Assembly: GCA_021463845.1 (NCBI GenBank)
Contig: JAJTXV010000001.1
Location: forward strand, 646,174-710,173
Origin: Anaerolineales bacterium
GTDB lineage: Bacteria > Chloroflexota > Anaerolineae > Anaerolineales > UBA11579
Length of the DNA stretch: 64,000 nt
Reading direction: 5' to 3'
Both the position numbers and the translations under genes were made by a program. Under the pieces are notes generated by a model. The model did no database searches. It saw nothing but the letters and a program-made list of their open reading frames with translations, and had not been told where the DNA came from. Below, piece after piece: positions 35,809-48,586 of the stretch; the stretch's first letter is position 1, and each line of letters opens with the position of its first letter.

Positions 35809-36558
35809 TTACCCGCCGAGCAGGCTGCCGATCACATCGCCGGCCACGCCGCCGCTCTTCTTGCCGCCGGAGCGCTTGGCCCCCGCCAGGATGCGGTCGG
35901 CCAGGCGCGAGAGCGGCAGGCTCTGCAAATACACCTTGCCCGGCCCGGTCAGCTGGGCCAGGAACAGGCCCTCGCCGGCGAACAGCGCATTGGTGAAGCC
36001 CTTCATCATCTTGATGTCGTAATCCACGCTGGGCGCAAAGGCCACCAGGCAGCCGGTATCCACCCGCAGGGTTTCGCCGGGGGCCAGGGTCTTCTCGATC
36101 AGCGTGCCGCCGGCGTGCACCCAGGCCATGCCGCTGCCTTCCAGGCGCTGCAGGATGAAGCCTTCGCCGCCGAAGAGGCCCGCACCCAGCCGCCTGGTGA
36201 AAGCGATCTCGATCTCGACGCTGGTGTCCGCACACAGGAACGAATCCTTCTGGCAGATGAACTTGCCGCCCTCGGCGGTCAGGTTGATGGGCAGGATGCT
36301 GCCCGGGTACGGCGCAGCAAAGGCCACATGCGAGACGGCCTGGCTGGTATTGCTAAAGGTTGAGATGAAAAAGCTCTCGCCGGTGAACATACGCTTCAGG
36401 CCCTTGAAGATGCCGCCGACACCGGTCTGCATCTCGACGCCGCTCTCCATGAAGGTCATGGTGCCGGCTTCGCCGCGCACCGCCTCGCCGGGGTCAAGCT
36501 CGATCTCGAGCAGCTGCAGGTCATCACCGTGGATCTTGTACGTAATCTCGTTTGGCAT
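35809..36558 (-). CDS. AIM24/TIGR00266 family protein (DUF124)
   Basis: 249 aa. Y.I.G...Q.L.I.L.PGE.V..E.G.M..M..GV and F..Q..G.G..W..A.G are characteristic. There is a Gly/Lys-rich C-terminus. Confidence 0.75.
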   Translation of the reverse strand: MPNEITYKIHGDDLQLLEIELDPGEAVRGEAGTMTFMESGVEMQTGVGGIFKGLKRMFTGESFFISTFSNTSQAVSHVAFAAPYPGSILPINLTAEGGKFICQKDSFLCADTSVEIEIAFTRRLGAGLFGGEGFILQRLEGSGMAWVHAGGTLIEKTLAPGETLRVDTGCLVAFAPSVDYDIKMMKGFTNALFAGEGLFLAQLTGPGKVYLQSLPLSRLADRILAGAKRSGGKKSGGVAGDVIGSLLGG

Positions 36559-36746: not shown

Positions 36747-37073
36747 ATGGAGAAAATACTCTCACGAACAGAAGAGACCCTGCTGCTGGCGGTGTGGGCG
36801 CTGGCGCCGAACGCCTACGGCCTGGCGATCGGCGAGCACTTACGCAAGCTGACCGGCAAACGCTGGTCCGTCGGCGCGATCTACATCCCGCTGGAGCGCC
36901 TGGAGGCGCGCGGCCTGTTGGCGGCGCATGAAGGCGAGCCGACCCCGCAGCGCGGCGGGCGCAGCAAGCGCTTCTTCACGCTGACCCCGCAGGGGCTGAA
37001 GGCGCTCAACGAGGCCCGGCGGCTGCACGAAGCGCTGTGGGCCGCGGTGCCTGATGAGGGAGGGCTGGCTTGA
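36747..37073 (+). CDS. PadR family transcriptional regulator
   Basis: 108 aa. The winged-HTH pattern is LLLAVW......YGLAI..HL.....K.WS...GAIY..L.RLE.RGLL. Confidence 0.82.
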   Translation: MEKILSRTEETLLLAVWALAPNAYGLAIGEHLRKLTGKRWSVGAIYIPLERLEARGLLAAHEGEPTPQRGGRSKRFFTLTPQGLKALNEARRLHEALWAAVPDEGGLA

Positions 37074-37720
37074 TGCACAACACCATCCAGCCGCCCGCCC
37101 AGGCCACCCGCCTGCTGCGCAGCGTGTTGCCACAGCCGAGCGCCGAAGCCATTCTGGGCGACCTGCACGAAGCCTTCGTGCAGGCGGCCCACGAAGACGG
37201 CTTGCTGGCGGCCCGCATCTGGTATTGGAAAGAAGCGCTGCTGGCGCTGCCTGGCTTCGCCCTGCTGGCATTGCAAAACACGCACACTCGGAGGCAACTT
37301 GTGAACGGAAACATGGTTAGCGAAAACTGGTTTGGCAAGAACAATGGCCGCACGGCGGCCATCACGGGGATGCTGCTGCTGGTACCCGCCCTGCTAGTTG
37401 AAGGCTTTGCAGTGGCCTACGTACTGTCTGGCCGGCCGATGGCGGCGGTGATGAACACGCCGGGCCTCTCGCACCTGATGGCGGCCATGGAGAGCGGCTA
37501 TCTGAACATCGCCGGCGCCGAGCTGCCGATCGGCATTCTGGTGCTGGCGGGCATCCTGCTGGCGGCCATCATCAACTTCTTCGCCGTGGTGCAGGTCAAG
37601 CTGGAAACGGTGGAGGACGGCTACCAGGCCACGCTGACCGCTCGCCGCAAGCTGTGGAACCTGCTGCTATTGGCGCTGGTCGCAGTGCTGCTGCTGGGCA
37701 TGGACTGGCTCATCAGCTAG
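37073..37720 (+). CDS. PadR-associated membrane protein
   Basis: About 215 aa. The N-terminal cytoplasmic segment (ILGDLHEAF....R.WYWKEAL) resembles the prefix domain found next to PadR genes, and it is followed by 3-4 TM helices. TGATG overlap with padR. Confidence 0.6.
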   Translation: MHNTIQPPAQATRLLRSVLPQPSAEAILGDLHEAFVQAAHEDGLLAARIWYWKEALLALPGFALLALQNTHTRRQLVNGNMVSENWFGKNNGRTAAITGMLLLVPALLVEGFAVAYVLSGRPMAAVMNTPGLSHLMAAMESGYLNIAGAELPIGILVLAGILLAAIINFFAVVQVKLETVEDGYQATLTARRKLWNLLLLALVAVLLLGMDWLIS

Positions 37721-37810
37721 CCACCTAAGTAATCCAAAGCCTCAGGCATATGCCTGGGGCTTTTTTATTTGCCCTAAAATCGGCTAAACTTGCATTCTAG
37801 GAGCGCACAC

Positions 37811-38164
37811 ATGAAATCAATCGCGAAAATTGCATCCTGGATCCTGATCTTCTTTGGCGTGCTCTTCATCTGGGCTGCGTTTGGCACCCAGACCAGTTGG
37901 GGCAACCTGGCCACCGGCCTGATCACCGTGGGCCTGGGCTTTGGCCTGATGTGGTACGCCAACCAAAAGCTGGCCGCCCCCGGCGAACAAAAGGTGACCT
38001 ACAACGTGGACCTGACCGGCGATGTGAAGCTGGAGAAGTTCCTGTGCCAGCAGTGCGGCGGCGCCCTGAGCGACAAGAACGTGGCCCTAGTGGGCGGCGC
38101 GCTCAACGTCACCTGCCCCTACTGCGGCGCGGTCTACCAGATCGAAGAAGCCCCCAAGTGGTAA
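37811..38164 (+). CDS. Small membrane protein with C-terminal zinc ribbon
   Basis: 117 aa from MKSIAK, with AGGAG 9 nt upstream. Two TM helices are followed by CQQCGG...17...CPYCG. Confidence 0.6.
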   Translation: MKSIAKIASWILIFFGVLFIWAAFGTQTSWGNLATGLITVGLGFGLMWYANQKLAAPGEQKVTYNVDLTGDVKLEKFLCQQCGGALSDKNVALVGGALNVTCPYCGAVYQIEEAPKW

Positions 38165-38231
38165 GCGCCCTGAGCGCAGTAACCAACTTCATCCCTCAGC
38201 CGTTCACTTCAAGCAGGACAGGTTCTGACCG

Positions 38232-39920
38232 ATGAAACTACGACACCGCATTCTCTCTCTTATTCTGTTGCTGCTGGTCGTGTGCGTGCCGCTCAGCGTG
38301 GCCTATGCACAGACCTATGCCTTCCAGGTGCCAACCCAGCGCGTAGATGTGTACTGGGAGCCCAACGGCACCCTGAGCGTCACCTACGAGATCACCTTTC
38401 GCAATGAGAGCTACGCGGACCCGATCGATTATGTAGACGTGGGTCTGCCCAACAATAGCTATTCGGTCTCCAACGTCAGCGCATCCATTGACGGCCGCCC
38501 CATCACCCACATTGCCTACTCGCCCTACATTGATGTTGGCGTGGAACTGGGGTTGGGCGCGTATGCGATCCAGCCCGGCCAGACCGGCACGGTGCGCATG
38601 ACCGCCACCAACGTCAGCAACGTGCTGTATGAGGATAACGAGGACAGCAGCTATGCCAGCGCGCTGTTCATGCCCAACTATTTTGACTCGGACTTTGTCA
38701 ACGGCAGCAGCGACATCACGGTGGTGTTCCACTTGCCGCCGGGCGTACAGCCCAGCGAGCCGCGCTGGCACACCGCCGGCCACCCTGGCTTCCCCGATAC
38801 ACCTGTCACCGGCGTGGATAACTCCGGCCGCATCACCTACACCTGGCGCAACACCAGTGCCAACGCCGGCGAAGACTATTTGTTCGGCGCCTCGTTCCCG
38901 GCCCGCTATGTCGCCAGCGGCAGTGTGACCGTGCCCACTTTCTGGCAGCGCTACGGCATCGATCCTGACGTGGTCATCGGCCTCCTGGTGTGCCTGTGCT
39001 TCGCCGGCTTCTTTGCTTTCATCGTGATCATCGCAGTGAGGGCTGAGCGCAGCCGCAAGCTCAAGTATTTACCGCCCAAGATCTCGGTCGAAGGGCACGG
39101 CATCAAGCGCGGCCTGACCGCGCCGGAAGCCGCCATCCTGCTTGAACAGCCGATGGACAAGATCCTCTCAATGATCATGTTCTCGGTGGTGAAAAAGGGC
39201 GCGGCGGAAGTGGTGACCCGTGACCCGCTGGATGTGGCGCGCGTCACCAAACAGCCAACCGGCTTGAAGGAATACGAGAACGACTTCCTGAACGCGTTCG
39301 CCGAAAGCGACAAAGCCAAGCGCCGGCGCGAGCTGCAGCAGATGATGGTGCGTATGGTGCGCGGCGTGGCCAACAAGATGCGCGGCTTCAGCAAGCGCGA
39401 GACGGTTGAGTTCTACAAGAAGATCACCGCTGATGCCTGGGCCGAAGTGGAAGCCGCGGATACGCCCAAGGTGAAGAGCGAAGCGTTCGACGAGAACCTG
39501 GAATGGACCATGCTGGATCCGAACTACGACCGCCGCACGCGGGATGTGTTCTCAGATGGGCCGGTGTATCTGCCGCGCTGGTATGGCGGCTACAACCCGG
39601 CCTACAACACAGCGGGCAAGACCTCATCCGCCCCCAGCGTGGGCCGCAGCAGCGGCAGCCCCACCCGCAGCACCGGCAGCCCCTCGCTGCCCACCCTGCC
39701 CGGCGGCGACTTCGCCGCCTCGGTGGTGGGCGGCGTGCAGAGCTTTGCCAGCAGCGTGGTGGGCAACCTGTCTGACTTCACCGGCGGCGTGACCAAGGTC
39801 ACCAACCCGCCGCCCCCGCCCTCTACCAGCAGCGGCGGTGGCGGCTTCAGCGGCGGCGGCTCGTCGTGTGCGTGTGCATGCGCAGGCTGCGCCTGCGCAT
39901 GCGCCGGAGGAGGCCGCTAA
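38232..39920 (+). CDS. DUF2207-like single-pass membrane protein with Ser/Gly-rich C-terminus ending in a Cys-Ala repeat (CACACAGCACACAGGGR)
   Basis: 562 aa. It has a signal peptide and an extracytoplasmic domain (Y.F.V....VDV...NG.L.V.YEI.F.N), one TM, and a cytoplasmic domain with the GIKRGLTAPEAAILLE motif. The low-complexity tail is PPPPPSTSSGGGGFSGGGSSCACACAGCACACAGGGR. The cytoplasmic domain is paralogous to 41700-42701. Confidence 0.75.
   Translation: MKLRHRILSLILLLLVVCVPLSVAYAQTYAFQVPTQRVDVYWEPNGTLSVTYEITFRNESYADPIDYVDVGLPNNSYSVSNVSASIDGRPITHIAYSPYIDVGVELGLGAYAIQPGQTGTVRMTATNVSNVLYEDNEDSSYASALFMPNYFDSDFVNGSSDITVVFHLPPGVQPSEPRWHTAGHPGFPDTPVTGVDNSGRITYTWRNTSANAGEDYLFGASFPARYVASGSVTVPTFWQRYGIDPDVVIGLLVCLCFAGFFAFIVIIAVRAERSRKLKYLPPKISVEGHGIKRGLTAPEAAILLEQPMDKILSMIMFSVVKKGAAEVVTRDPLDVARVTKQPTGLKEYENDFLNAFAESDKAKRRRELQQMMVRMVRGVANKMRGFSKRETVEFYKKITADAWAEVEAADTPKVKSEAFDENLEWTMLDPNYDRRTRDVFSDGPVYLPRWYGGYNPAYNTAGKTSSAPSVGRSSGSPTRSTGSPSLPTLPGGDFAASVVGGVQSFASSVVGNLSDFTGGVTKVTNPPPPPSTSSGGGGFSGGGSSCACACAGCACACAGGGR
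39876..39902 (+). other. Perfect 12-bp hairpin inside the Cys-Ala codons, just upstream of the next gene's SD
   Basis: GCATGCGCAGGC-TGC-GCCTGCGCATGC, followed by GGAGGAGG (39906-39913) and ATG 39920. Confidence 0.7.
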
Positions 39921-41083
39921 TGGGCTTTCTGGACAAACTGCGCGGCGGCGAGAAGGCTCAGCCGCTGGAACCCGGGCTGTTCTCCTACACCTCGCCGGCC
40001 AGCCACCCCAACCACTACCGTTTGCACTTGCGGGTTGAGCCGGGCGGCGAAGGCCTGCTGGTCATCAACGCCAGCACGGTATTGCACCTCAACCAAACCG
40101 CCACAGAGATGGCTTGGCACTTCATCCGCCTGACGCCGCCTGAGCAAGTGGCCGAGCAGGTATCCAAGCGCTATAGCACCAACAAGAAGCAGGCGGCCGA
40201 CGATTACGCCGAATTTGCCAAGACGATCCAGACCCTGATCGAAACGCCCGACCTGGACCCGGTGACGTATCTGGATGTCGACCGCGCCACACCCTATGAG
40301 GACCTGAGCGCGCCGTACCGGCTGGATATTGCACTGACCTACCGCCTGCCGGAGGGCGCCCCTGCCGAGGCGGCGCCCAGCAAGCGCGTTGAGCGCGAGC
40401 TGAGCACGGACGAGTGGAAGCAGGTGATCGACAAGGCCTACAACGCCGGCATCCCGCACATCACCTTCACGGGCGGCGAGCCGACCCTGCGCGAAGACCT
40501 GGCCGAGCTGCTGCAGCACGCCGAAGCCCGCGGCCTGGTAACCGGCCTGGTGACCGACGGCCACAAGCTCACCGACACGCGCTACCTCAAGACCCTGCTA
40601 GACGCGGGTCTGGACCATGCCATGATCGTGCTGCAGCCCAGCGGCACGCAGACCTGGGACTCGCTGGCCAGCTTTGCCTATTGGCGTGAAGTGCTGAACG
40701 ATGACATCTTCATCGCTGCCCACCTGACGCTGACCAAGGACAACGCCAGCCAGGCCAATGCGCTGATCGACAAGCTGTCGGGCAGCGGCATCCGCGCCCT
40801 CTCGCTGAGCGAAGCGGACACCTCGCTGCACGAGGCGCTGCAGGCCGCCCGCGACCATGCCGGCGCGCTGAACTTGCCGCTGGTGTGGGACCTGCCCGTG
40901 CCGTATTCGGCGCTCAATCCGGTCAGCTTGGAGCTGGCAGCCGCCCACGGCCAGGATACTCCGCAGGGGGCAGGCAAGGCCTGGCTCTACGTAGAGCCGG
41001 ATGGCGACGTGCTGCCCGGCCAGGGCGGCAAGAAGGTGCTAGGCAATTTTGTGCGCGATGAGTGGAGTGGGATTTGGAGGTAG
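39920..41083 (+). CDS. Radical-SAM-like pseudoenzyme (no CxxxCxxC, no SPASM cysteines) with N-terminal PqqD/RRE-like domain
   Basis: 387 aa. Collinear with 42876-44510, but APYRLDIALTYRLPEGAP replaces APYKVDIALTYGCNNECPHCYN, and LYVEPDGDVLPGQ replaces LCIEPNGNVLPCQ. The GGE-type motif ITFTGGEPTL is retained. The ATG overlaps the upstream TAA (TAATG). Confidence 0.75.
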   Translation: MGFLDKLRGGEKAQPLEPGLFSYTSPASHPNHYRLHLRVEPGGEGLLVINASTVLHLNQTATEMAWHFIRLTPPEQVAEQVSKRYSTNKKQAADDYAEFAKTIQTLIETPDLDPVTYLDVDRATPYEDLSAPYRLDIALTYRLPEGAPAEAAPSKRVERELSTDEWKQVIDKAYNAGIPHITFTGGEPTLREDLAELLQHAEARGLVTGLVTDGHKLTDTRYLKTLLDAGLDHAMIVLQPSGTQTWDSLASFAYWREVLNDDIFIAAHLTLTKDNASQANALIDKLSGSGIRALSLSEADTSLHEALQAARDHAGALNLPLVWDLPVPYSALNPVSLELAAAHGQDTPQGAGKAWLYVEPDGDVLPGQGGKKVLGNFVRDEWSGIWR

Positions 41084-41123
41084 TAGCGTAACAACTGCTG
41101 GCCAGTTACGCTAAAATTATCCC

Positions 41124-41378
41124 ATGAGCGCAGAGCGAAATTTCTCTTTTCGAGTAGTGATCGAGCCGGATGACCCGGAAGGGTTTCATGGATTCGTGCC
41201 ATTGCTACCCGGCGTTCACACTGTGGGGGATACTGTCGAACAGACTAAGCAAAATCTGCGCGAGGCAATTTTGGTTCATGTAGAAGGCCTTCTGAAGGAT
41301 GGCGAAGAAATCCCTCAAGAAGGCAAGGTGCTCGAGTTGGTTGAGACCTTTTCCAGCAAGGATTTTTCCTCAAGCTAG
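41124..41378 (+). CDS. hicB: HicB family antitoxin (short form, no DNA-binding domain)
   Basis: 84 aa. The F.V.IE.D...GF...VP.LPG..T.G.T.E....N..EAI..H.E pattern is typical of HicB/UPF0150. Confidence 0.8.
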   Translation: MSAERNFSFRVVIEPDDPEGFHGFVPLLPGVHTVGDTVEQTKQNLREAILVHVEGLLKDGEEIPQEGKVLELVETFSSKDFSSS

Positions 41379-41609
41379 ATGCCAAAGCTGCCTGTTGTAA
41401 AAGCGAGGGAACTATTGAACGCGCTTCAAAGAATGGGCTTTGTTGTCCATCACCAGCGCGGCAGCCATATTCAACTCAAGCATGCGGATGGCAGACGCGT
41501 CACTGTTCCCATGCATGCAGGTACAGACATACGCAGAGGCACGCTGCGAGCAATCATCAGAGACATCGGGCTTAGTGTCGACGAATTTTTGGAACTACTG
41601 AACCGCTAA
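41379..41609 (+). CDS. hicA: HicA family mRNA-interferase toxin
   Basis: 76 aa. K.RELL.AL...GF......GSH.QLKH..GRR.TVP.H.G.DI..GTL..I..D.GLS..EF. It starts immediately after the hicB stop (TAGATG). Confidence 0.85.
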   Translation: MPKLPVVKARELLNALQRMGFVVHHQRGSHIQLKHADGRRVTVPMHAGTDIRRGTLRAIIRDIGLSVDEFLELLNR

Positions 41610-41634
41610 GCATCCTTCATAGAGAGTACAAGCC

Positions 41635-41692
41635 AGATTGCTTCGGGCTGAAAGTTGCATGCTCATGCAACTTTCAGCATCCTCGCAATGAC
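41635..41692. repeat. AGATTGCTTCG-hairpin-CTCGCAATGAC element (near-identical inverted copy at 62552-62609)
   Basis: AGATTGCTTCGGGCTGAAAGTTGCATGCTCATGCAACTTTCAGCATCCTCGCAATGAC. The reverse complement of 62552-62609 differs at only a few positions. Confidence 0.85.
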
Positions 41693-41699
41693 GGGGAGA

Positions 41700-42701
41700 T
41701 CACCCGTAAAACGTAGTTCTACGAATATCGCTTAGCAGCGCGGCGGTCACTGCATCGCTCTCATCCCCCAAGTCGAGCTTGACGTCGCCTTCGTCTACTA
41801 TGCCGTCGAGCTCGGTGTAGACAGCCTGCACCCAGCGGGCGAAGGTGTGGCCGCCGAGGTGCACCGGCTGCTTGCGCAGCCATTGCGGCACATAGGAATA
41901 GTCCGGCTGGTCGAGCACGCTGACGAAGTCGGCGCCCAGCAGTACCCAGCCTAGGTTGCGGTTGAATATCCGCTCACGGTCGAAGGTCAGCTTGCCGTCG
42001 CTGCGGGCTTCCTTGGGGGCGCGGTCAATGATGAGGTCGTAGTAGGTGCGGGTTTCGTCGAGGCTGTAGCCCCCCGCCCGCCCGGCCACATAGCGCACCA
42101 GCGGCTGCACCGCCACGCCTAGGTCAAGCTGGCGCACGGGAACTCCAGGATGGGTCTCGATGATCTCAAGGAACGGCTCTTCAAAGGCGTGGAGGGCCGC
42201 ATTGATGGCCTGGGCGGCCAGGCGGCGGCGCTCGCCGCGCTGCTGGACGGTCAGCGCGAGACCATGCGTGCGGAAGGCTTCCTCGACTTCGACAGTGAAC
42301 GGCTCGCCGTGCGTCTGGCGCAGGATGCCTTTACGCAACAGCTCGAACAGCAGCAGAGTCAGCGTGATGTTGATCGGCCGGCCAAGCAGCACAGCCGCCT
42401 CGGGCGGCGTGAGGCCGCGCTTGACGCCGCCGCCCTCGATGCGGGCTACGGCGGGCTGGTAGCCCGCCGCCCGTGCCCGGCGCCAGGCAGCCCAACCCAG
42501 CAGGCCCAGCAACGGCACGAAGGCCAGCAGCTGCGCCAGCGGCCAAACGGCGAACAGCGCCAGCAGCCCGGCGGCTAGGGCGGCAAAGAGCAGCCGGCCC
42601 TGTCCGCGGGCCAGCTGCAAGAACAATAGCCACAGCAACGCCGTGAACACGGCGGCTGTGGCTATGCGCAGGATAGCGTTGGCTTCAAGGGCGGCGAGCA
42701 T
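41700..42701 (-). CDS. Membrane protein paralogous to the cytoplasmic domain of the DUF2207-like protein (no Cys tail)
   Basis: 333 aa. Three N-terminal TM helices precede ARIEGGGVKRGLTPPEAAVLLGRP (compare ISVEGHGIKRGLTAPEAAILLEQP). Further collinear matches: GYSLDETRTYY vs GFSKRETVEFY, RNLGWVLL vs ENLEWTML, YVPQWL vs YLPRWY. Confidence 0.7.
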   Translation of the reverse strand: MLAALEANAILRIATAAVFTALLWLLFLQLARGQGRLLFAALAAGLLALFAVWPLAQLLAFVPLLGLLGWAAWRRARAAGYQPAVARIEGGGVKRGLTPPEAAVLLGRPINITLTLLLFELLRKGILRQTHGEPFTVEVEEAFRTHGLALTVQQRGERRRLAAQAINAALHAFEEPFLEIIETHPGVPVRQLDLGVAVQPLVRYVAGRAGGYSLDETRTYYDLIIDRAPKEARSDGKLTFDRERIFNRNLGWVLLGADFVSVLDQPDYSYVPQWLRKQPVHLGGHTFARWVQAVYTELDGIVDEGDVKLDLGDESDAVTAALLSDIRRTTFYG

Positions 42702-42707
42702 GGAGCG

Positions 42708-42737
42708 ATTATACGAGCTGCAAAGCTTTCACCACAA
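42708..42737 (-). promoter_or_regulatory. Candidate promoter giving a leaderless transcript for 41700-42701
   Basis: Minus strand: TTGTGG (42737-42732), an 18-nt spacer, TATAAT (42713-42708), then CGCTCC and ATG (42701). No SD is present. Confidence 0.45.
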
Positions 42738-42872
42738 AGACACGAAGAACACAAAGTTTGGAAATCGTGCGCAGTTCTGTGCGGCTGGCAATAACAGGAT
42801 GGGCGTATAAATCTGCAATCAGAAATCGAAAATCAGAAATACCTTTGTGCTCTTTGTGATTTTGTGGCCCGG
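42725..42872. repeat. MITE-like element with imperfect terminal inverted repeats (CCACAAAGACACGAAGAACACAAAG family)
   Basis: CACCACAAAGACACGAAGAACACAAAGT (42730-42757) and CCTTTGTGCTCTTTGTGATTTTGTGG (42842-42867) are inverted copies matching at about 22 of 26 positions. They flank about 85 nt that contain CAGAAATCGAAAATCAGAAAT. Confidence 0.7.
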
Positions 42873-42875
42873 TAT

Positions 42876-44510
42876 TTATTGCCCGCTCATTACACCGATC
42901 TCGTCCAGCCCGATCATGTCAAAGTTGCCGCTGGCGCGGGTCTTGGTGCGGGTCGTGCTGGGCGACGGCGTGAAGCCGCCAGCAGGAATATACCCAGCGG
43001 TGTGCGAGTGCCCCTTCACCTGATGGGCTGAGTTGCCAGTGCCGCAGCTGCCGCTGCAGCCCGAGCAGCCGCCCCCGCTGCCCTCGGCCACACGCACACC
43101 GTCACGCGCTTCGCGTTCGATGCGGCAGCCGCCGCCGCACAGCGGCAGGTCCGGGCAGGTCCAGCATTTTTCGGGCAGGCCGTAACCCTTGGGGTCCAGC
43201 TCGCGGTAGCGGAAGCTGCGGAACAGCTCGCCATCCCAGATCTTTTCCCATGGGTCGTGCAGGATGTTGCCGGCCGACACGTAGTACGACTGGCACGGCA
43301 GCACGTTGCCGTTGGGCTCGATGCACAGCGAATACTCGCCGGCGTTGCAGCGCTTGGCGCCAATCTCAAGCTCAACCGGCGACATGCGGCAATACTCAGT
43401 GGGCGTGTACCACAGGAAGCGCATGCCAAGCTCGCGGGCCTTGTCACGCACGCGCACCAGCAAGGCCGGCATCTCTTTCTCGTCAATGGCGTTGGAGTGC
43501 GCAAAACCACCGCCGGAGTAGATGAGGCCATTCATAGCGAAGGTGCGGATGCCGAGCGAATACAGGAACTCAATGATCTCCTCGACATGGCCCATGTTGG
43601 CGCGCATCAGGGTGGTGTTGGTGATCACATGCACCCGGCTGGCGATGGCATTCTCGATACCTTGCACGGTCTGGTGCCAGGCCTTGGCGCCCATCATGGC
43701 GTTGTGTACATCCGGGCGGTTGGAATCGAGCGTGAACTGCACATGGTTCAAGCCGGCCTCAGCCAGCTCTTGCATGTACTCATTGTGGGCAATGTGGCGG
43801 CCGTTGGTGTTGAGGCCGACGACCATGCCGAGCTGATCGGCATAGCGAATGACCTGCGGCAGGTCCGGGTGCAGAGTGGCTTCACCGCCAGTGAGGATCA
43901 GGTGCGGCACGCCCAGCTCGGCCAGGCGGTCGAGCACCGCGTACCATTCATTCAGCGGCAGCGAGGGCATGTTGAGGCGGTCGGCCTCGTTATAGCAGTG
44001 CGGGCACTCGTTGTTGCAGCCATAAGTCAGGGCGATGTCGACTTTGTACGGCGCGTTGACTTCCACGCTGAACATAGGCGACATTTCCAGCGTATCGCTC
44101 AGCTCGCAGGTCGGGCAGTCACCGTCCGGGTGGGCAAAGCCCTCGACCATGTCGTAGATCTGGGTCAGCTCGCGCTCGATCTGGGCCAGCGGCGCCTCAG
44201 GGTGCCAGCCGCCGATGCGGGCGCGAGCTTGCGCCCGCGGCACGCCGTCGAGGGCCATCTTGGCCATCAGGGCGGCGGTGTGGTTGAGGTGGACCACATC
44301 GGTCACATCCACGAACATCACGCCGTTGCCGCTGGGCTCGATGCGTAAGTGAATACGCATGCTGCGCCCATTGGCCATTGCGATGTCATAGGTATGCAAA
44401 CCGGTGCGGGGTTTTTCGGGCTGGGAAAAGGCCGCCAGGAAATTGGCCGTGTCGCTGCGCACTCCCTGCCACAATTTATTGACGGAAGCAGAACGGATAT
44501 CGAGGGCCAT
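42876..44510 (-). CDS. Radical SAM/SPASM enzyme with N-terminal PqqD/RRE-like domain and Cys/Ser/Gly-rich C-terminal extension
   Basis: 544 aa. CNNECPHC is the CxxxCxxC motif and LILTGGEATL is the GGE motif. The SPASM motifs are C..8..CIEPNGNVLPC and CWTCPDLPLCGGGC. The N-terminal ~130 aa resemble PqqD/RRE domains (VVHLNHTAALMAKMAL...). About 85 aa extend beyond SPASM and contain GSGGGCSGCSGSCGTG. Confidence 0.85.
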   Translation of the reverse strand: MALDIRSASVNKLWQGVRSDTANFLAAFSQPEKPRTGLHTYDIAMANGRSMRIHLRIEPSGNGVMFVDVTDVVHLNHTAALMAKMALDGVPRAQARARIGGWHPEAPLAQIERELTQIYDMVEGFAHPDGDCPTCELSDTLEMSPMFSVEVNAPYKVDIALTYGCNNECPHCYNEADRLNMPSLPLNEWYAVLDRLAELGVPHLILTGGEATLHPDLPQVIRYADQLGMVVGLNTNGRHIAHNEYMQELAEAGLNHVQFTLDSNRPDVHNAMMGAKAWHQTVQGIENAIASRVHVITNTTLMRANMGHVEEIIEFLYSLGIRTFAMNGLIYSGGGFAHSNAIDEKEMPALLVRVRDKARELGMRFLWYTPTEYCRMSPVELEIGAKRCNAGEYSLCIEPNGNVLPCQSYYVSAGNILHDPWEKIWDGELFRSFRYRELDPKGYGLPEKCWTCPDLPLCGGGCRIEREARDGVRVAEGSGGGCSGCSGSCGTGNSAHQVKGHSHTAGYIPAGGFTPSPSTTRTKTRASGNFDMIGLDEIGVMSGQ

Positions 44511-44550
44511 AGATGAAAGTATATATGATTAATCGACGGAGTGACTAACA

Positions 44551-44568
44551 GACTAGTCAACTAGTCAG
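44551..44568. promoter_or_regulatory. Tandem ACTAGTCA / palindromic GACTAGTC motif in the divergent promoter region
   Basis: GACTAGTCAACTAGTCAG lies 3 nt upstream of TATAAT (44572-44577). It sits between the radical SAM gene (minus strand) and the methyltransferase gene (plus strand). Confidence 0.4.
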
Positions 44569-44586
44569 CCATATAATCCCTGAACG

Positions 44587-45318
44587 ATGCAACCTGCCCT
44601 CGCACACCAGCGCTATACCCAGCAAGCCGCCTGGACCGCCCCAGCCCGCCGCCACCTGCTGGCGGCGGCCGGGCTGCCGAATGCGCGCCGCATACTGGAG
44701 GTGGGCTGCGGCACAGGCGCCATCCTGCGCGGCGTAGCCATGCCGCCGGGCGGCCGTCTGCATGCGCTGGACATAGACCGCGCCGCCCTCACGCTGGCCC
44801 GCCAGCACGCGCCGCAGGCGCACCTGGCGGCGGGCGACGCGCATACCCTGCCCTACCCTCACGCCAGCTTTGACATTGCCTATTGTCATTTTGTGCTGCT
44901 ATGGCTGGCAGACCCAGAACGCGGTCTGGCTGAGATGCGCCGCGTGGTGCGGCCCGGCGGCGCGGTGCTGGCATTGGCCGAGCCGGACTACAGCCAGCGC
45001 AGCGACGAGCCAGCCGAACTGGCCGCGCTGGGGCATGCGCAGACCGAAGCCCTGCGCGCCCGCGGCGCTGACCCCGCTGCGGGCGGCCAACTGCCTGCGT
45101 TGTTTGCGGCGGCCGGGCTGCACATCGTCGACGCCGGGCCGCTGCAAGTCAGCAGCCCGGCCGCAGAAGGCGAAGCCAGCACGCTGCGCGTCGACCTGAG
45201 CGGGCATGTGCCCGCCGAGCAGCTGGAGCGATGGCTAGCGCAGGACGCTGCGGCCTGGGCAGCGGGCACGCGCAGGCTACATGTGCCCACCTACTACGCC
45301 TTCGGGCGGGTGCGGTAG
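44587..45318 (+). CDS. Class I SAM-dependent methyltransferase
   Basis: 243 aa. Motif I is ILEVGCGTGAILRG, followed by the post-I region and FDIAYCHFVLLWLADPERGLAEMRRVVRPGGAVL. Confidence 0.85.
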   Translation: MQPALAHQRYTQQAAWTAPARRHLLAAAGLPNARRILEVGCGTGAILRGVAMPPGGRLHALDIDRAALTLARQHAPQAHLAAGDAHTLPYPHASFDIAYCHFVLLWLADPERGLAEMRRVVRPGGAVLALAEPDYSQRSDEPAELAALGHAQTEALRARGADPAAGGQLPALFAAAGLHIVDAGPLQVSSPAAEGEASTLRVDLSGHVPAEQLERWLAQDAAAWAAGTRRLHVPTYYAFGRVR

Positions 45319-45369: not shown

Positions 45370-46023
45370 ATGTTCAAAGACAGCCGCAACATTCTTGGAA
45401 TCGTACTTATCCTGGCCGGAGCCTTTCTGGCGCTCGAGCAGTTTGACCTGATCCCTGGCTCAGCGCGGGATGGATTCTTCGGCGTGCTGTTGGCCATCGC
45501 CGCGATCGCGCTGCTCTCGCTGTTCCTGGCCGACCGCAGCCGCTGGTGGGCCGTGATGGTGGGCTGCTTCGTTTCCGGCCTGGCCCTCATAAGCCTGCTG
45601 GGCACCTTCCTGCCGGAAGTGAGCGAAACCCTCGGTGGGCCGATCTTCCTGGGCTTTATGGGCTTGGGCTTCCTTTCGGTATTCACTTTGAATCGCGAAA
45701 TGTGGTGGGCGCTGATCCCTGGCGGAGTGATGTTCTCGCTGGCTGCGGTCGCTTATTTTGAAAGCCTGCCGGGCAACCTGCCTTTTGATCCTGCTGGCCT
45801 GCTCTTCATTGGCCTGGGCCTCACCTTCATTGTGCTATCAACGGTCAAAGTCGGCAATCTTCGCCTTGGCTGGGGCGTGTACCCCGGCATCCCGCTGCTG
45901 CTGTTCGGCCTTATGCTGGCGCTGGGCTCGGAAGCGCTGTGGTCCTATATCGGCCCGCTGATGCTGATCGCGGGCGGTGCGTGGCTGCTATACAGCTCTC
46001 TGCGAAACAAAAGCGGCGCCTAG
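45370..46023 (+). CDS. Integral membrane protein with internal duplication
   Basis: 217 aa and about 8 hydrophobic segments. Repeated half-motifs are DRSRWWAVMVG and NREMWWALIPG. GGAGG lies upstream. Confidence 0.6.
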   Translation: MFKDSRNILGIVLILAGAFLALEQFDLIPGSARDGFFGVLLAIAAIALLSLFLADRSRWWAVMVGCFVSGLALISLLGTFLPEVSETLGGPIFLGFMGLGFLSVFTLNREMWWALIPGGVMFSLAAVAYFESLPGNLPFDPAGLLFIGLGLTFIVLSTVKVGNLRLGWGVYPGIPLLLFGLMLALGSEALWSYIGPLMLIAGGAWLLYSSLRNKSGA

Positions 46024-46034
46024 GCGCCGCTTTT
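46009..46034. terminator. Bidirectional terminator
   Basis: AAAAGCGGCGCC-TA-GGCGCCGCTTTT, followed by TTG. Confidence 0.8.
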
Positions 46035-46054
46035 TTGTTCGCTTGTTTCTAAGT

Positions 46055-46834
46055 TTAATCGATTGACTCTGCAATGCGCACGAGCTCGCGCAGTGGCAGA
46101 TTGGCCTCGATGCGATAGGTCAGCTCACCCATCTGCCAGATCAAAGCCGGAGCCTGTACTAAAACGCCTCTGTATGTTTCGTTGTGCGTACTCAGGAAAT
46201 GGTCGCCAATCACTAGCGCACCCAAACTGTCGTGCACCCATAGCCGTTCCACCACCTCAGGCTCATCCTTATGCAAGCGCACGCTCGGGCCTAAGATGTA
46301 GAGTGCCGTCTCAACCTTATCGGCATTCTCGTCGTCCAGCCACACCAGGATCACGTAACGCGCATCCACTTCGCCCTGCAAGTAGACTTTGTCCGGTTCA
46401 CCCAACCCTGCAGGGTAACGAGGCAGCGTGATCTCAAAGCCGGCTTGCTGGCGCACTTGTGCCAGCGTCAGCGCGCCGCTCAAATCAGCCAGCGGCACGA
46501 TCTCGCCATATTGCCCAAGCGCTTTGGCCAGGGGTTTCGTTGTGCTCAATTTGGAAACTCCCTCCGCCGGGAGGTTGATGTGCACGCCGCCCACCTGCAG
46601 CGCGGCCAGCACACGGGCGCGCACATCCGGCACGGCCAGCAGGCTGGCCGCCAGCGCCAGCACGGCTGCGGCGGCCCAGGCCAGCCGCGGCAGTGGGTGC
46701 GTGCGGCGCAATGCCGCACGCGGTGCGGGCTGTGGCGAAATTTGCGCTGCAATATCCGGCGTAGCTGGATATTGCAAGCCGCGCCCGGCCTGCTGCAGTG
46801 AAACTTCCAGATGAGCCAGCCTGCGGTCATCCAT
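46055..46834 (-). CDS. Anti-sigma factor-like single-pass membrane protein
   Basis: 259 aa. A short cytoplasmic N-terminus precedes one TM (LAWAAAAVLALAASLLAV) and an extracytoplasmic domain. It overlaps the stop of the upstream ECF sigma gene by 8 nt. Confidence 0.6.
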   Translation of the reverse strand: MDDRRLAHLEVSLQQAGRGLQYPATPDIAAQISPQPAPRAALRRTHPLPRLAWAAAAVLALAASLLAVPDVRARVLAALQVGGVHINLPAEGVSKLSTTKPLAKALGQYGEIVPLADLSGALTLAQVRQQAGFEITLPRYPAGLGEPDKVYLQGEVDARYVILVWLDDENADKVETALYILGPSVRLHKDEPEVVERLWVHDSLGALVIGDHFLSTHNETYRGVLVQAPALIWQMGELTYRIEANLPLRELVRIAESID

Positions 46835-47411
46835 GGCGGTCCTCCTCCAACTGCGGAAACTCTGAACGAATGATCTCGTGCAATTTTTGCAGAGCTCGGT
46901 GCGTCTGCGACTTCACTGTGCCGGTGGCCTGGCCCAGCGCCTCGGCAGTCTCCTCCACCGAAAGCTGCATGAAGTAACGCAGATAGATCACGCTCTGCAG
47001 GCGGGCCGGCAGTGTGCGCACCGCGCTCCATAGCTCATGGGCCTGCTGCGCGGCTTCGCTGCCGGCCTGCGGTCCCTCGGCCGCTTGCGGCTGCTGGCGG
47101 GCTGCCCGCTGCAGCGCGGCCCAATAGCGGCTGGCGCTACGCTGGCGGTTGCGCGCCAGGTTGGATACGATGCGCAGTAGCCAAGGCCGCAGCGGCCGCT
47201 GGGCGTCAAAGCGGCCGAGGTGCTTGTAGGCGCGCACGAAGCAATCCTGCGCGGCGTCCTGAGCCTCGGCCGCATCGCCCAGGTGCAAATACGCCAGGCG
47301 GAACACAGCCTCCTGGTGCAGGCGCACGAGTTCGGCCCAGGCGGCCTGGTCACCGCGGCGGGCTAGGGCTACGACGTTGGCTTCATCCAAACATTGCCTC
47401 GAGGCGGTCAT
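46827..47411 (-). CDS. ECF-type RNA polymerase sigma-70 family factor
   Basis: Region 2 (AF..L...H...V.RLAY..LGD..EAQDAAQD.FVRAY) and region 4 (VIYLRYF..LSVEETAEALG...GTVKSQ.HRAL.KL). The start is set at MTASRQ. Confidence 0.85.
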   Translation of the reverse strand: MTASRQCLDEANVVALARRGDQAAWAELVRLHQEAVFRLAYLHLGDAAEAQDAAQDCFVRAYKHLGRFDAQRPLRPWLLRIVSNLARNRQRSASRYWAALQRAARQQPQAAEGPQAGSEAAQQAHELWSAVRTLPARLQSVIYLRYFMQLSVEETAEALGQATGTVKSQTHRALQKLHEIIRSEFPQLEEDRHG

Positions 47412-47533
47412 GAAGACCGCTAGCACTGATACTACCCCGCTGCCCTCGTGCAGGTTCCCATCCCGGCACTTTGCTATATAATTCAACTAATTACGAACTT
47501 CACAAAAGTTCTATCACTACCCAAGGAGCTCCA

Positions 47534-48586
47534 ATGGCAACACGAGCTGCGGCCCGCAAGACCGCAAAGACCCACCCCATCCCGCTGGTCAAGCGCTGGC
47601 AGATGGTTCTAAATGGCTGCAACATCCCCCAACTTGAACTTGCCGATGGCCTCACCCGCTGGCTGGTGATCTCACGAGCTTGCGTGTTCTCGATGTCGTT
47701 CACGTCTGGCATGCTGGGCTTGCTAATTGCGGCCGAGCAGGTGGGCATCGGCAATGTGGACTGGCTGCTGGGCTTCCTGGCCGTGATCGGCATTGTGGCC
47801 GCCCATGCCTCCAACAACCTGCTCAACGATTATTTTGACGTGCGCCAAGGTGTTGACACTGAAGATTATCCGCGTGCACAGTACAGCGTGCATCCCATCC
47901 TGGGTGGTCTCACCACCCCCAAGGGTTTGCTGCTGGCCGCCGGCCTGCTGAACCTGGTGGACCTCGCCATCATGCTGTACTTGTACAGCCAGCGCGGCGT
48001 CCTGATCGTTGGCTTTGCACTGGCCGGCTTGCTGCTGAGCCTGCTCTACACCAGCGTGCTGAAGCGTGCCGGCCTGGGCGAGCTGACCGCCCTGGTGGTA
48101 TGGGGTCCGCTGATGATCGGCGGCACCGCTTTCGCTGCCTCGGGCGTGATCTCCCCCGCCATCTGGGTGCTCTCGCTGCCCTACGGCCTCATCGTGGCCT
48201 CGGTGCTGATCGGCAAGCACATCGACAAGATCAAGCCCGACAAGAAAGTGGGCGTGAACTCGGTGCCGGTGCTGCTGGGCGAGAAGCGCTCCCTGCAGCT
48301 CAACAAGGTCACCTTCATCATCTTCTATATCCTGATCATTGCCATGGTGGTGCTGAAATACACCGGCCCCTGGGTACTGCTGACCTTCCTGGCGATCCCG
48401 CGCCTGCGCCAGACCTGGAAGGCCTACTCCGAGCCCAAGCCGGCCAAGCCCCCCGCGGGCTGGACAGTATGGCCGCTGTGGTACGTGAGCTGGGCCATGC
48501 TGTTCAACCGCAAGGCCGGCGAGTTCTTTACGCTGGGCCTGCTGCTGAATCTGGCTACTCCGTACGTGATGGGGTTATTTAGCTAA
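47534..48586 (+). CDS. UbiA-superfamily prenyltransferase (MenA-like)
   Basis: About 350 aa with 8-9 TM segments. The Asp-rich motif is NNLLNDYFDVRQGVD. AAGGAG lies 6 nt before ATG 47534. Confidence 0.8.
   Translation: MATRAAARKTAKTHPIPLVKRWQMVLNGCNIPQLELADGLTRWLVISRACVFSMSFTSGMLGLLIAAEQVGIGNVDWLLGFLAVIGIVAAHASNNLLNDYFDVRQGVDTEDYPRAQYSVHPILGGLTTPKGLLLAAGLLNLVDLAIMLYLYSQRGVLIVGFALAGLLLSLLYTSVLKRAGLGELTALVVWGPLMIGGTAFAASGVISPAIWVLSLPYGLIVASVLIGKHIDKIKPDKKVGVNSVPVLLGEKRSLQLNKVTFIIFYILIIAMVVLKYTGPWVLLTFLAIPRLRQTWKAYSEPKPAKPPAGWTVWPLWYVSWAMLFNRKAGEFFTLGLLLNLATPYVMGLFS

Follow-up and report, generated by a model that had tools for sequence, protein, structure and literature searches.

Gene content of the locus

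The window analysed here, a 64,000-nucleotide stretch of DNA from an Anaerolineales bacterium, contains a set of genes (A, B, C, F, G and H) that brings together a radical S-adenosylmethionine (SAM) enzyme, G, a paralogue of this enzyme that has lost its Fe-S cluster ligands, C, and a single-pass membrane protein, B, whose C-terminus is an invariant Cys-Ala repeat. The best explanation for this set, which on balance we consider probable, is that G modifies the cytoplasmic Cys-Ala tail of B in a manner like that of ribosomally synthesised and post-translationally modified peptides (RiPPs), with C, H, A and F in accessory roles. The genes and their main features are as follows, with positions numbered within the window and residues given as amino acids (aa).

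A, 37811..38164, plus strand: small zinc-ribbon protein with two transmembrane (TM) segments; start chosen to agree with the orthologue alignment
B, 38232..39920, plus strand: 562 aa single-pass membrane protein; open reading frame (ORF) confirmed
Cytoplasmic domain of B (predicted), aa 279-455, 39066..39596, plus strand: holds the GIKRGLTAPEAAILLEQP winged-helix motif and is the part common to F
Pre-tail conserved segment of B, aa 487-528, 39690..39815, plus strand: LPGxDFAASVVxGVQxF...FTxxVTxxTNPxP
Tail core of B, CACACAGCACACAGGGR, 39867..39917, plus strand: final 17 residues ahead of the stop codon
C, 39920..41083, plus strand: 387 aa cluster-less paralogue of G
F, 41700..42701, minus strand: 333 aa polytopic membrane protein
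G, 42876..44510, minus strand: 544 aa enzyme combining a putative RiPP recognition element (RRE), a radical-SAM domain and a SPASM domain
Subfeatures of G, minus strand: putative RRE, approximately 44151-44402; CNNECPHC, 43995-44018; SPASM, 43125-43349
Clade-specific C-terminal extension of G (GGGCSGCSGSCGTGN...), 42879-43103, minus strand
H, 44587..45318, plus strand: 243 aa class I SAM-dependent methyltransferase, divergent from G in the window

All of the genes that an earlier note on this DNA had described from the sequence are present at the coordinates it gave, including the overlap of B and C: the start codon of C is the ATG within CGC-TAA-TGG, so the TAATG overlap is real and the two genes share one base. 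The intergenic gaps in the window are tiny and leave no space for a separate precursor peptide gene. Both pairs of paralogues recognised in the note were recovered. B and F align by BLASTP (E=1e-10, 28% identity over ~200 aa), and comparison of the B-family and F-family profiles with hhalign (probability 99.8%, E=7e-29) places B 279-462 onto F 76-281. C and G are likewise collinear paralogues (BLASTP E=1e-49, 27% identity), with 411 collinear columns that include the N-terminal domains. The zinc-ribbon membrane protein upstream and the divergent SAM methyltransferase downstream were also correctly identified.

An invariant Cys-Ala motif terminates B

The C-terminus of B has the form (CA)3-4-G-(CA)3-GGGR-stop, which is invariant in 68 full-length orthologues that are elsewhere 40-60% identical. 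Synonymous codons vary freely at all 17 tail positions, with the full sets of six Arg and three stop codons in use. Because the codons vary while the residues do not, selection must act on the tail peptide and not on the DNA or RNA, and a DNA- or RNA-level cause of the repeat could thus be ruled out. A conservation profile identified the tail as the most conserved block of the protein (0.98), followed by the GIKRGLTAPEA winged-helix motif (0.94, aa 291-300) and the pre-tail segment (0.6-0.7, aa 491-530). On either side of the pre-tail segment the sequence is variable, in the linker (0.24-0.47) as well as in the Gly/Ser spacer (0.47). The seven-thiol CxC tail accepts no residues other than Cys and small ones and, as judged from these alignments, the tail is not low-complexity drift.

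The strict motif pattern was present in 109 of the 150 best B-family representatives, and the others among the 150 are for the most part fragmentary genes or variant forms such as CVCACVSCACACAGGGAR. It occurs once in the window, where no occurrence is expected by chance. A metagenome scan with the back-translated motif plus a stop codon returned 127 occurrences in 120 loci, 115 of which are on B-like ORFs, while the others are end-truncated or frameshifted fragments. A stand-alone precursor peptide bearing the motif was considered and rejected, as no credible short carrier was found among the metagenome occurrences.

Towards its C-terminus, B therefore runs from a variable linker through a conserved segment and a variable spacer to an invariant core, an order of sequence blocks that resembles a leader-core precursor fused onto the end of a protein. 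The pre-tail segment features a series of invariant columns (P487, L489, P490, G491, F494, A495, G511, F516, T517, T521, T524, N525 and P528) and is predicted to form two amphipathic helices (492-510 and 513-524) in an AlphaFold2 model. We regard it as a candidate recognition ('leader-like') element.

The AlphaFold2 model of B (mean predicted local distance difference test (pLDDT) score 75, above 90 in the ectodomain) comprises, from N- to C-terminus, a signal peptide, an extracellular beta-sandwich (aa 30-230), one TM helix, a cytoplasmic winged-helix and helical domain, a disordered linker, the two amphipathic helices (492-524) and a disordered tail. In Foldseek, the ectodomain matched ribophorin I/OST1 and the M1 aminopeptidase N-domain. 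Hydropathy analysis detected two hydrophobic segments in total, the signal peptide and the TM helix at aa 251-269, and the C-terminal flank of the TM helix has a charge of +5. Hydropathy and the positive-inside rule together predict that the C-terminal part of B, tail included, faces the cytoplasm, and the model suggests that the tail is disordered and accessible there. The alternative topology, in which the pre-tail segment is a third TM helix and the tail lies outside, was rejected: hydropathy beyond aa 480 peaks at 1.2, and this peak falls on the tail itself. The archaeal pre-tail segment is hydrophilic, being rich in Asn, Lys, Arg and Gln.

B and 40 of its orthologues were scanned against Pfam and NCBIfam, and B returned no significant match in either. 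The earlier note had called the membrane proteins DUF2207-like, and B does share with DUF2207 (PF09972/PF20990) a signal peptide, an extracellular beta-rich domain, a TM helix, a cytoplasmic region and a Gly-rich tail. However, the alignment with the DUF2207 N-terminal model, although full-length (aa 37-212 against profile positions 6-164 of 172), is insignificant (E=0.99, 10 bits versus a cut-off of 24.4). DUF2207_C matched two of the 40 orthologues, at E-values of 0.065 or weaker. TIGR04222 membership was also rejected, given a score of 14.8 bits versus a cut-off of 43 (E=0.016 over the winged-helix region) for B and matches in four of the 40 orthologues at E-values of 0.01 or weaker. In the absence of a significant profile match, the label names an architecture and not membership of a family; B may still be distantly related to DUF2207 or TIGR04222. 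No literature was found on DUF2207 proteins with a Cys-Ala motif or radical-SAM partners. An exhaustive profile search with B retrieved 1093 representatives (50% identity clusters) at E<=1e-3, 433 of them at <=1e-30; since it returned no more than this, the profile of B stays separate from any much larger family.

Two variations on the B architecture were observed among its homologues. Some are ~770 aa long (P0293, P0335, P0336 and P0340) and align with the profile over two separate stretches, pointing to an N-terminal ectodomain that is duplicated or additional. Tandem copies of B, each with a Cys-Ala tail, occur in several genomes (L022 3639-7153; L085 8001-11776; L numbers denote individual loci).

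G resembles RRE-containing radical-SAM/SPASM peptide maturases

Pfam analysis of G identified a Radical_SAM domain (PF04055; 1e-27, 97.8 bits versus 29.5), with CNNECPHC at aa 165-172, and a SPASM domain (PF13186; 2e-11, 44.4 bits versus 21.5). The cluster-binding CxxxCxxC is kept in every G orthologue with a near-complete ORF, and the CxxCx5CGGGCP ending in nearly all; cysteines C374, C388, C396, C406, C449, C452, C458 and C462 of the SPASM region are invariant. The closest solved sequences are SkfB (6.8e-17) and PqqE (1.1e-16). A PqqD domain (PF05402), the RRE type found in RiPP maturases, was detected in 32 of 42 G orthologues (best E 4.8e-9), and the N-terminal region of the window G is collinear with the RRE of C within one high-scoring segment pair. 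It is this combination of PqqD domains and nearest solved sequences that marks G as peptide-maturase-like. The claim that both G and C begin with a PqqD-type RRE thus held for C, which scores above the Pfam gathering threshold, and for most G orthologues, whereas the window G itself had no match at E<0.1.

The best NCBIfam match of G is PqqE (121.5 bits), and the mycofactocin maturase is also among its matches. G falls below every equivalog cut-off in this group (bits/cut-off: PqqE 121.5/381, SkfB 78.9/300, AlbA 71.6/850, MftC 90.8/265, StsB 94.1/625). In the majority gene layout, G is ~455 aa long and ends directly after the SPASM domain with no extension; the Cys-containing extension of the window G (GGGCSGCSGSCGTG...) is confined to the clade of the window. 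A conserved PDGxCPxC motif is found in G orthologues between the RRE and the radical-SAM core (window 44106-44129, aa 128-135). Its C132 is invariant, the motif is not found in C, and it could provide an extra metal or cluster ligand.

These relationships bear on two other explanations for the B tail. Seven thiols, CxC spacing and the tolerance of only Cys and small residues would suit an unmodified metal- or Fe-S-binding site of a metallothionein-like CxC kind, in which case G would act on a lipid, small molecule or cofactor, and B, A and F would tether the enzymes or sense the outside. Phospholipid genes lie between G and C at some loci, and the GDGT-MAS tetraether-lipid synthase is among the Foldseek and PDB matches, both of which are compatible with such a role. 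We nevertheless think this unlikely, because C and most G orthologues carry PqqD-type peptide-recognition domains, the nearest characterised relatives (SkfB, PqqE and SuiB) are peptide maturases, and the lipid genes are found at few loci only. Metal binding alone would also leave the Ala/Gly invariance, the GGGR end and the pre-tail segment unexplained.

Alternatively, B could be a membrane-tethered precursor whose modified tail is cut off as a redox cofactor or peptide product, as PQQ is from PqqA and mycofactocin from MftA. The core of MftA lies at its extreme C-terminus, as does the Cys-Ala core of B; the PqqE (121 bits) and mycofactocin maturase matches of G fit this comparison, as does the presence of a methyltransferase, which some cofactor pathways share. 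This explanation is improbable in our view, given that the cluster has no conserved peptidase, exporter or additional tailoring enzyme and that all G scores are far under the equivalog cut-offs. Moreover, the large ectodomain and the cytoplasmic domain are kept on every carrier and there are no short carriers, which would be wasteful for a consumable precursor.

C retains a recognition domain but has lost all cluster ligands

In C, Pfam detects a PqqD domain at aa 50-102 (25.8 bits versus a gathering threshold of 23.4) and a weak Radical_SAM match (3.6e-11, 44 bits) that reflects residual barrel homology. Neither CxxxCxxC (the aligned segment reads LTYRLPEGAPAEAAPSKR) nor the SPASM cysteines are present in C or in any of its 18 aligned orthologues, so the earlier statement that only the minus-strand enzyme, G, keeps both sets of cysteines was accurate. 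The degenerate barrel retains FTGGEPTLR, also across orthologues, and 97 columns are invariant across the 18 sequences, which indicates that C is under purifying selection despite the loss of its clusters.

The AlphaFold2 model of C, which was used for domain topology alone, features four strands between residues 19 and 57 followed by helices at 59-69, 74-85 and 89-108. This places the predicted RRE at approximately aa 19-108, and the top Foldseek matches are SkfB, PqqE and SuiB. The second-best NCBIfam match of C is TIGR04347, a haloarchaeal pseudo-SAM/SPASM family that has likewise lost its cluster cysteines. C scores 57.8 bits versus a cut-off of 525 for this family, from which it differs in keeping an N-terminal RRE and in sitting beside an active paralogue. 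C may act as an adaptor, as the earlier note had proposed.

Genetic linkage is maintained through rearrangement and across domains

A genome scan anchored on C yielded 536 relatives, and the best 80 loci all come from Anaerolineae; carriers among them include the cultured Pelolinea submarina, Bellilinea caldifistulae and Ornatilinea apprima. At the 53 C-anchored loci with enough flanking sequence, G was found in all 53, B in 51, A in 49, H in 49 and F in two. A second set of loci was anchored on the tail motif in metagenomes, and here the 34 loci with enough flank encode a G-type enzyme in 33 cases, A in 29, H in 21, C in 19 and F in three. Conservation of the gene neighbourhood, which had been suggested as a check, is therefore evident in both bacteria and archaea, with G beside the motif at all but one of these loci.

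At least four gene orders were seen: A-B-G-C-H, A-B-C with F-G convergent, A-G-B-B-H and A-B-G. The majority layout is A-B-G-C-H on one strand without F, while the window layout, A-B-C convergent with F-G plus H, is restricted to a single clade (L001-L008). The A-G-B-B-H order belongs to a bacterial locus, L085, where the tail is present on both B copies. Archaeal loci (L084 and L086/L087) encode A-B-G only and lack C and H; their archaeal origin is indicated by neighbouring TBP and Alba genes at L086/L087 and by a neighbouring Nre gene at L084. C is also absent from some bacterial loci. Judged from gene content, the conserved unit comprises up to five genes (A, B, G, C and H), of which C and H are usually present. 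The counts over motif-anchored loci, together with the archaeal A-B-G loci, point to A-B-G as the obligate core, with C and H as frequent accessories and F as a rare one.

This distribution alters the picture of two convergent modules, each pairing a membrane protein with its own radical-SAM paralogue, that was drawn from the window alone. The convergent layout is derived and confined to one clade, F is present at only two of the 53 genome loci, and C is missing from the archaeal and some bacterial loci, so neither the layout nor the pairing is a conserved property. A Cys-rich tail is indeed found once in each of the two modules, but the tail of G is clade-specific, whereas that of B is the invariant hallmark of the system; one tail per module is thus not a rule.

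The persistence of linkage through rearrangement and across bacteria and archaea supports a functional link between the genes. Gly/Ser/Cys-rich tails are common on DUF2207/TIGR04222-type proteins (PMC12452194), and one could therefore suppose that the adjacency is inherited synteny without function and the tail compositional low complexity. This is scarcely credible when the tail residues are invariant over scrambled codons, the linkage survives at least four gene orders in both domains, and the single motif match in the window compares with none expected.

Insertions within the cluster were observed at several loci. In Anaerolineae genomes, three membrane-lipid genes lie between G and C at L009 (5671-7670), L011 (5824-7940), L015 (5772-7912) and L057 (5211-7348), and sequence motifs identify them as CDP-alcohol phosphatidyltransferase-like, LpxL/PatA-like acyltransferase and PAP2-like phosphatase genes. 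At L047, B and G are separated by a gene for a 527-aa protein with multiple TM segments that resembles a glycosyltransferase. A Band_7/SPFH protein fused to zinc ribbons adjoins the A-B-G genes at two unrelated and divergent loci, the archaeal L084 (11109-12092) and the bacterial L085 (5056-6258).

The partner proteins A, F and H

A features a zinc ribbon (CxxCGG...CPYC) and two TM segments, as judged from an alignment of 23 orthologues that include archaeal ones. The first hydrophobic segment alone passes the hydropathy threshold, and the second TM segment was read from the sequence and the alignment; Pfam returned weak zinc-ribbon matches. The ribbon probably faces the cytoplasm. The C-terminus of A, (T/E)EEPKW, is nearly invariant from Anaerolineae to archaea and represents the second conserved C-terminal motif of the system. 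A could organise the system at the membrane, donate electrons in the manner of a rubredoxin or be a second substrate.

The last of these roles corresponds to a further alternative, in which the substrate of G is A, or A plus B, and the (T/E)EEPKW C-terminus is modified. Among the relatives of G, SuiB joins Lys to Trp and PqqE joins Glu to Tyr in cross-links; A is also the first gene in almost all layouts, and its last residues are conserved from Anaerolineae to archaea. We consider this alternative very improbable, since A is missing from five of the 34 motif-anchored loci versus one for G, the conserved cysteines of A form a standard zinc ribbon, and conservation is more extreme in the Cys-Ala tail, which is exclusive to the system.

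F lacks the ectodomain, the pre-tail segment and the Cys-Ala tail of B. Its 94 detected homologues are all unnamed and none features a Pfam domain, and F itself is confined to the clade of the window (L001-L008, and two of the 53 genome loci). H is a methyltransferase by Pfam analysis (Methyltransf_11, 6e-23) that is encoded directly downstream of C in most genomes. Its best NCBIfam match is the DVU_1556 family. Membership of the DVU_1556/DVU_1557/TrsS set was considered and rejected, as scores of 68.4/155 for H, 15.5/60 for A and 83/490 for G reflect generic similarity only; the literature found on this set does no more than list TrsS. No Pfam or NCBIfam model for B, F or the system was found.

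Neighbouring genes and other features of the window

Two further features of the locus lie on the plus strand:

Terminator-like hairpin, 37736..37763, plus strand: 12-bp stem followed by a T run; consensus scan, pattern match only
HicB antitoxin (41124-41378) and HicA toxin (41379-41609), plus strand: identified with Pfam

The hairpin is terminator-like and would part the A-B-C operon from the upstream PadR and membrane-protein genes; this upstream flank (36747-37720) encodes a PadR regulator plus a 216-aa membrane protein. Pfam analysis identified HicA_toxin (8e-21, 74.4 bits versus 27) and HicB_lk_antitox (7e-13, 49.2 bits versus 27) between C and F, and neither family appears in the lists of called genes for L001-L003. 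The HicAB pair, which the earlier note had not mentioned, is an insertion local to the point where C and F converge and lies outside the system. At L004 and L005 this junction is occupied by 1-3 kb of other DNA, which gives it the look of an insertion hot spot.

Downstream of H, the flank at 45370-47486 encodes a LiaI/LiaF-like membrane protein and an ECF sigma factor, together with a 259-aa ORF without a Pfam match that is the upstream neighbour of the sigma factor gene and may encode an anti-sigma factor. A LiaI/LiaF-like gene is again found near H at L005, L032 and L071, and an ECF sigma/anti-sigma pair likewise flanks L085. A UbiA-family prenyltransferase is encoded at 47471-48586, ~2 kb downstream of H. 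An AIM24-family gene occurs a few kb upstream of A in the window (35809-36558), at L001 (3913-4674) and at L004 (3134-3895), with 67-68% identity, and its strand in the window is opposite to that in the related type-1 loci. An association with anti-phage defence was also considered and rejected: PADLOC gave generic viperin (radical SAM) and methyltransferase similarity, and the cluster is chromosomal and class-wide.

A proposed route to a modified membrane-protein tail

From the gene content, homologies, motif invariance, genetic linkage and predicted topology described above, we infer that the B tail is the substrate of G, and propose the following chemistry and partner roles. B would be exported with its N-terminus out, so that its beta-sandwich is extracellular and its tail lies in the cytoplasm beside G, C and H. 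G would dock on the pre-tail segment of B via its putative PqqD-type RRE, as RiPP maturases do on leader peptides. With its radical-SAM cluster site and a SPASM domain complete for two clusters, it would then use a 5'-deoxyadenosyl radical to alter the Cys-Ala core. By analogy with the nearest characterised relatives, the product would most likely be Cys-derived thioether cross-links, with Cys-derived heterocycles as the alternative. The substrate is most likely a full-length protein and not a small peptide.

C is probably an ancient duplicate of G that lost all its Fe-S ligands and kept its recognition element under strong selection, and as a non-catalytic partner it may hold the substrate or scaffold G. 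H would put on methyl groups, and A, as a membrane-anchored zinc ribbon, may organise the complex at the membrane or supply electrons. In the clade of the window, G has moved to the opposite strand and gained both its C-terminal extension and a dedicated membrane partner, F. The latter, apparently a copy of the cytoplasmic domain of B, would hold the machinery at the membrane together with A.

Several points weigh against this proposal. Its support consists throughout of comparative genomics and predicted structures; the window G is below Pfam significance for PqqD, and the model of C is of low confidence (mean pLDDT 61). The RRE could bind an element other than the pre-tail segment, such as the equally conserved C-terminus of A, and a CxCxC repeat would equally be expected of a metal-binding site that carries no modification. 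C and H are not essential to the core function, since they are absent from the archaeal loci, and in some genomes the set is split, with C-H apart from A-B-G or, at L013, A-B-C-H without a nearby G. Finally, the cluster contains no protease or exporter, which means that it is not a classical RiPP pathway. RiPP-like modification of the tail, first suggested from the window alone, is still the best explanation and has been strengthened by the invariance of the motif, its exclusivity to the system and its linkage to G at 33 of 34 loci.

Relationship to known systems

SkfB, AlbA, SuiB and PqqE with PqqD share with the G family the order of RRE, radical-SAM barrel and SPASM/twitch domain, as well as CxxxCxxC and auxiliary-cluster cysteines, and the thioether-forming maturases among such enzymes also resemble G in having a Cys-rich substrate, here a putative one. 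Unlike these RRE-containing radical-SAM/SPASM maturases, G is encoded together with a paralogue that is catalytically dead, a short precursor gene, a protease and an exporter are all missing, and the putative core ends a 562-aa membrane protein. Modified cores within large functional proteins are found in the borosin OphMA and in QhpC, which is cross-linked by the radical-SAM/SPASM enzyme QhpD; QhpD makes Cys thioethers inside a protein subunit. To our knowledge, carriers of the OphMA/QhpC type are unrelated to B, and a membrane protein that ends in a Cys-Ala repeat is not among them.

The earlier note knew of no described system that pairs such a maturase with membrane proteins of this architecture, and no literature description of this system or of a radical-SAM pairing of this kind was found. 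An analogue with a different enzyme does exist, however. Subsets of TIGR04222 membrane proteins with Cys-containing tails have been proposed, on bioinformatic grounds, as substrates of adjoining multinuclear iron oxidases (MNIO, DUF692; Microb Genom 2025, PMC12452194), and this pairing is the closest described analogue. Both cases feature a full-length membrane protein with a Gly/Ser-rich, Cys-containing C-terminal tail and an adjoining gene for a RiPP-type enzyme. They differ in the enzyme, which is here a radical SAM/SPASM protein with a putative fused RRE, and in the tail, which is variable, Cys-sprinkled and periplasmic in the MNIO case but a single invariant motif that is predicted to be cytoplasmic here. 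The present system also has the additional conserved partners A, C and H. What we class as new is thus the proposed application of a known process, RRE-guided radical-SAM/SPASM maturation, to the terminus of a full-length membrane protein.

Implications

We put forward more tentatively, as a possibility short of probable, that this is an ancient bacterial and archaeal system that furnishes a receptor-like single-pass membrane protein with a novel Cys-derived structure at its cytoplasmic C-terminus, with a degenerate maturase paralogue as dedicated chaperone. Candidate structures include a thioether ladder, a string of thiooxazole-type metal ligands and an alternating D/L segment. The hypothesis is testable, as it involves a precise motif (CACACAGCACACAGGGR), a small set of partners (A, G, C and H) and cultured carriers (Pelolinea, Bellilinea and Ornatilinea).

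If the proposal is true, RRE-guided radical-SAM/SPASM chemistry reaches the terminus of a full-length membrane protein, and the system represents protein maturation and not a natural-product pathway. On the more tentative reading, no earlier case of a protein-tethered 'cofactor' made by a radical-SAM enzyme on a membrane protein would precede the modified tail, and (Cys-Ala)n-GGGR would be its signature. Two unrelated enzyme classes, radical-SAM/SPASM enzymes and MNIOs, may have converged on Cys-rich membrane-protein tails, and C would provide a clean example of a pseudoenzyme, a dead radical-SAM paralogue under strong selection. Anaerolineae are abundant in sludge, sediments and the subsurface, and a function for this system would be the first for ~1000 clusters of hypothetical proteins that are widespread in this class and also found in archaea.

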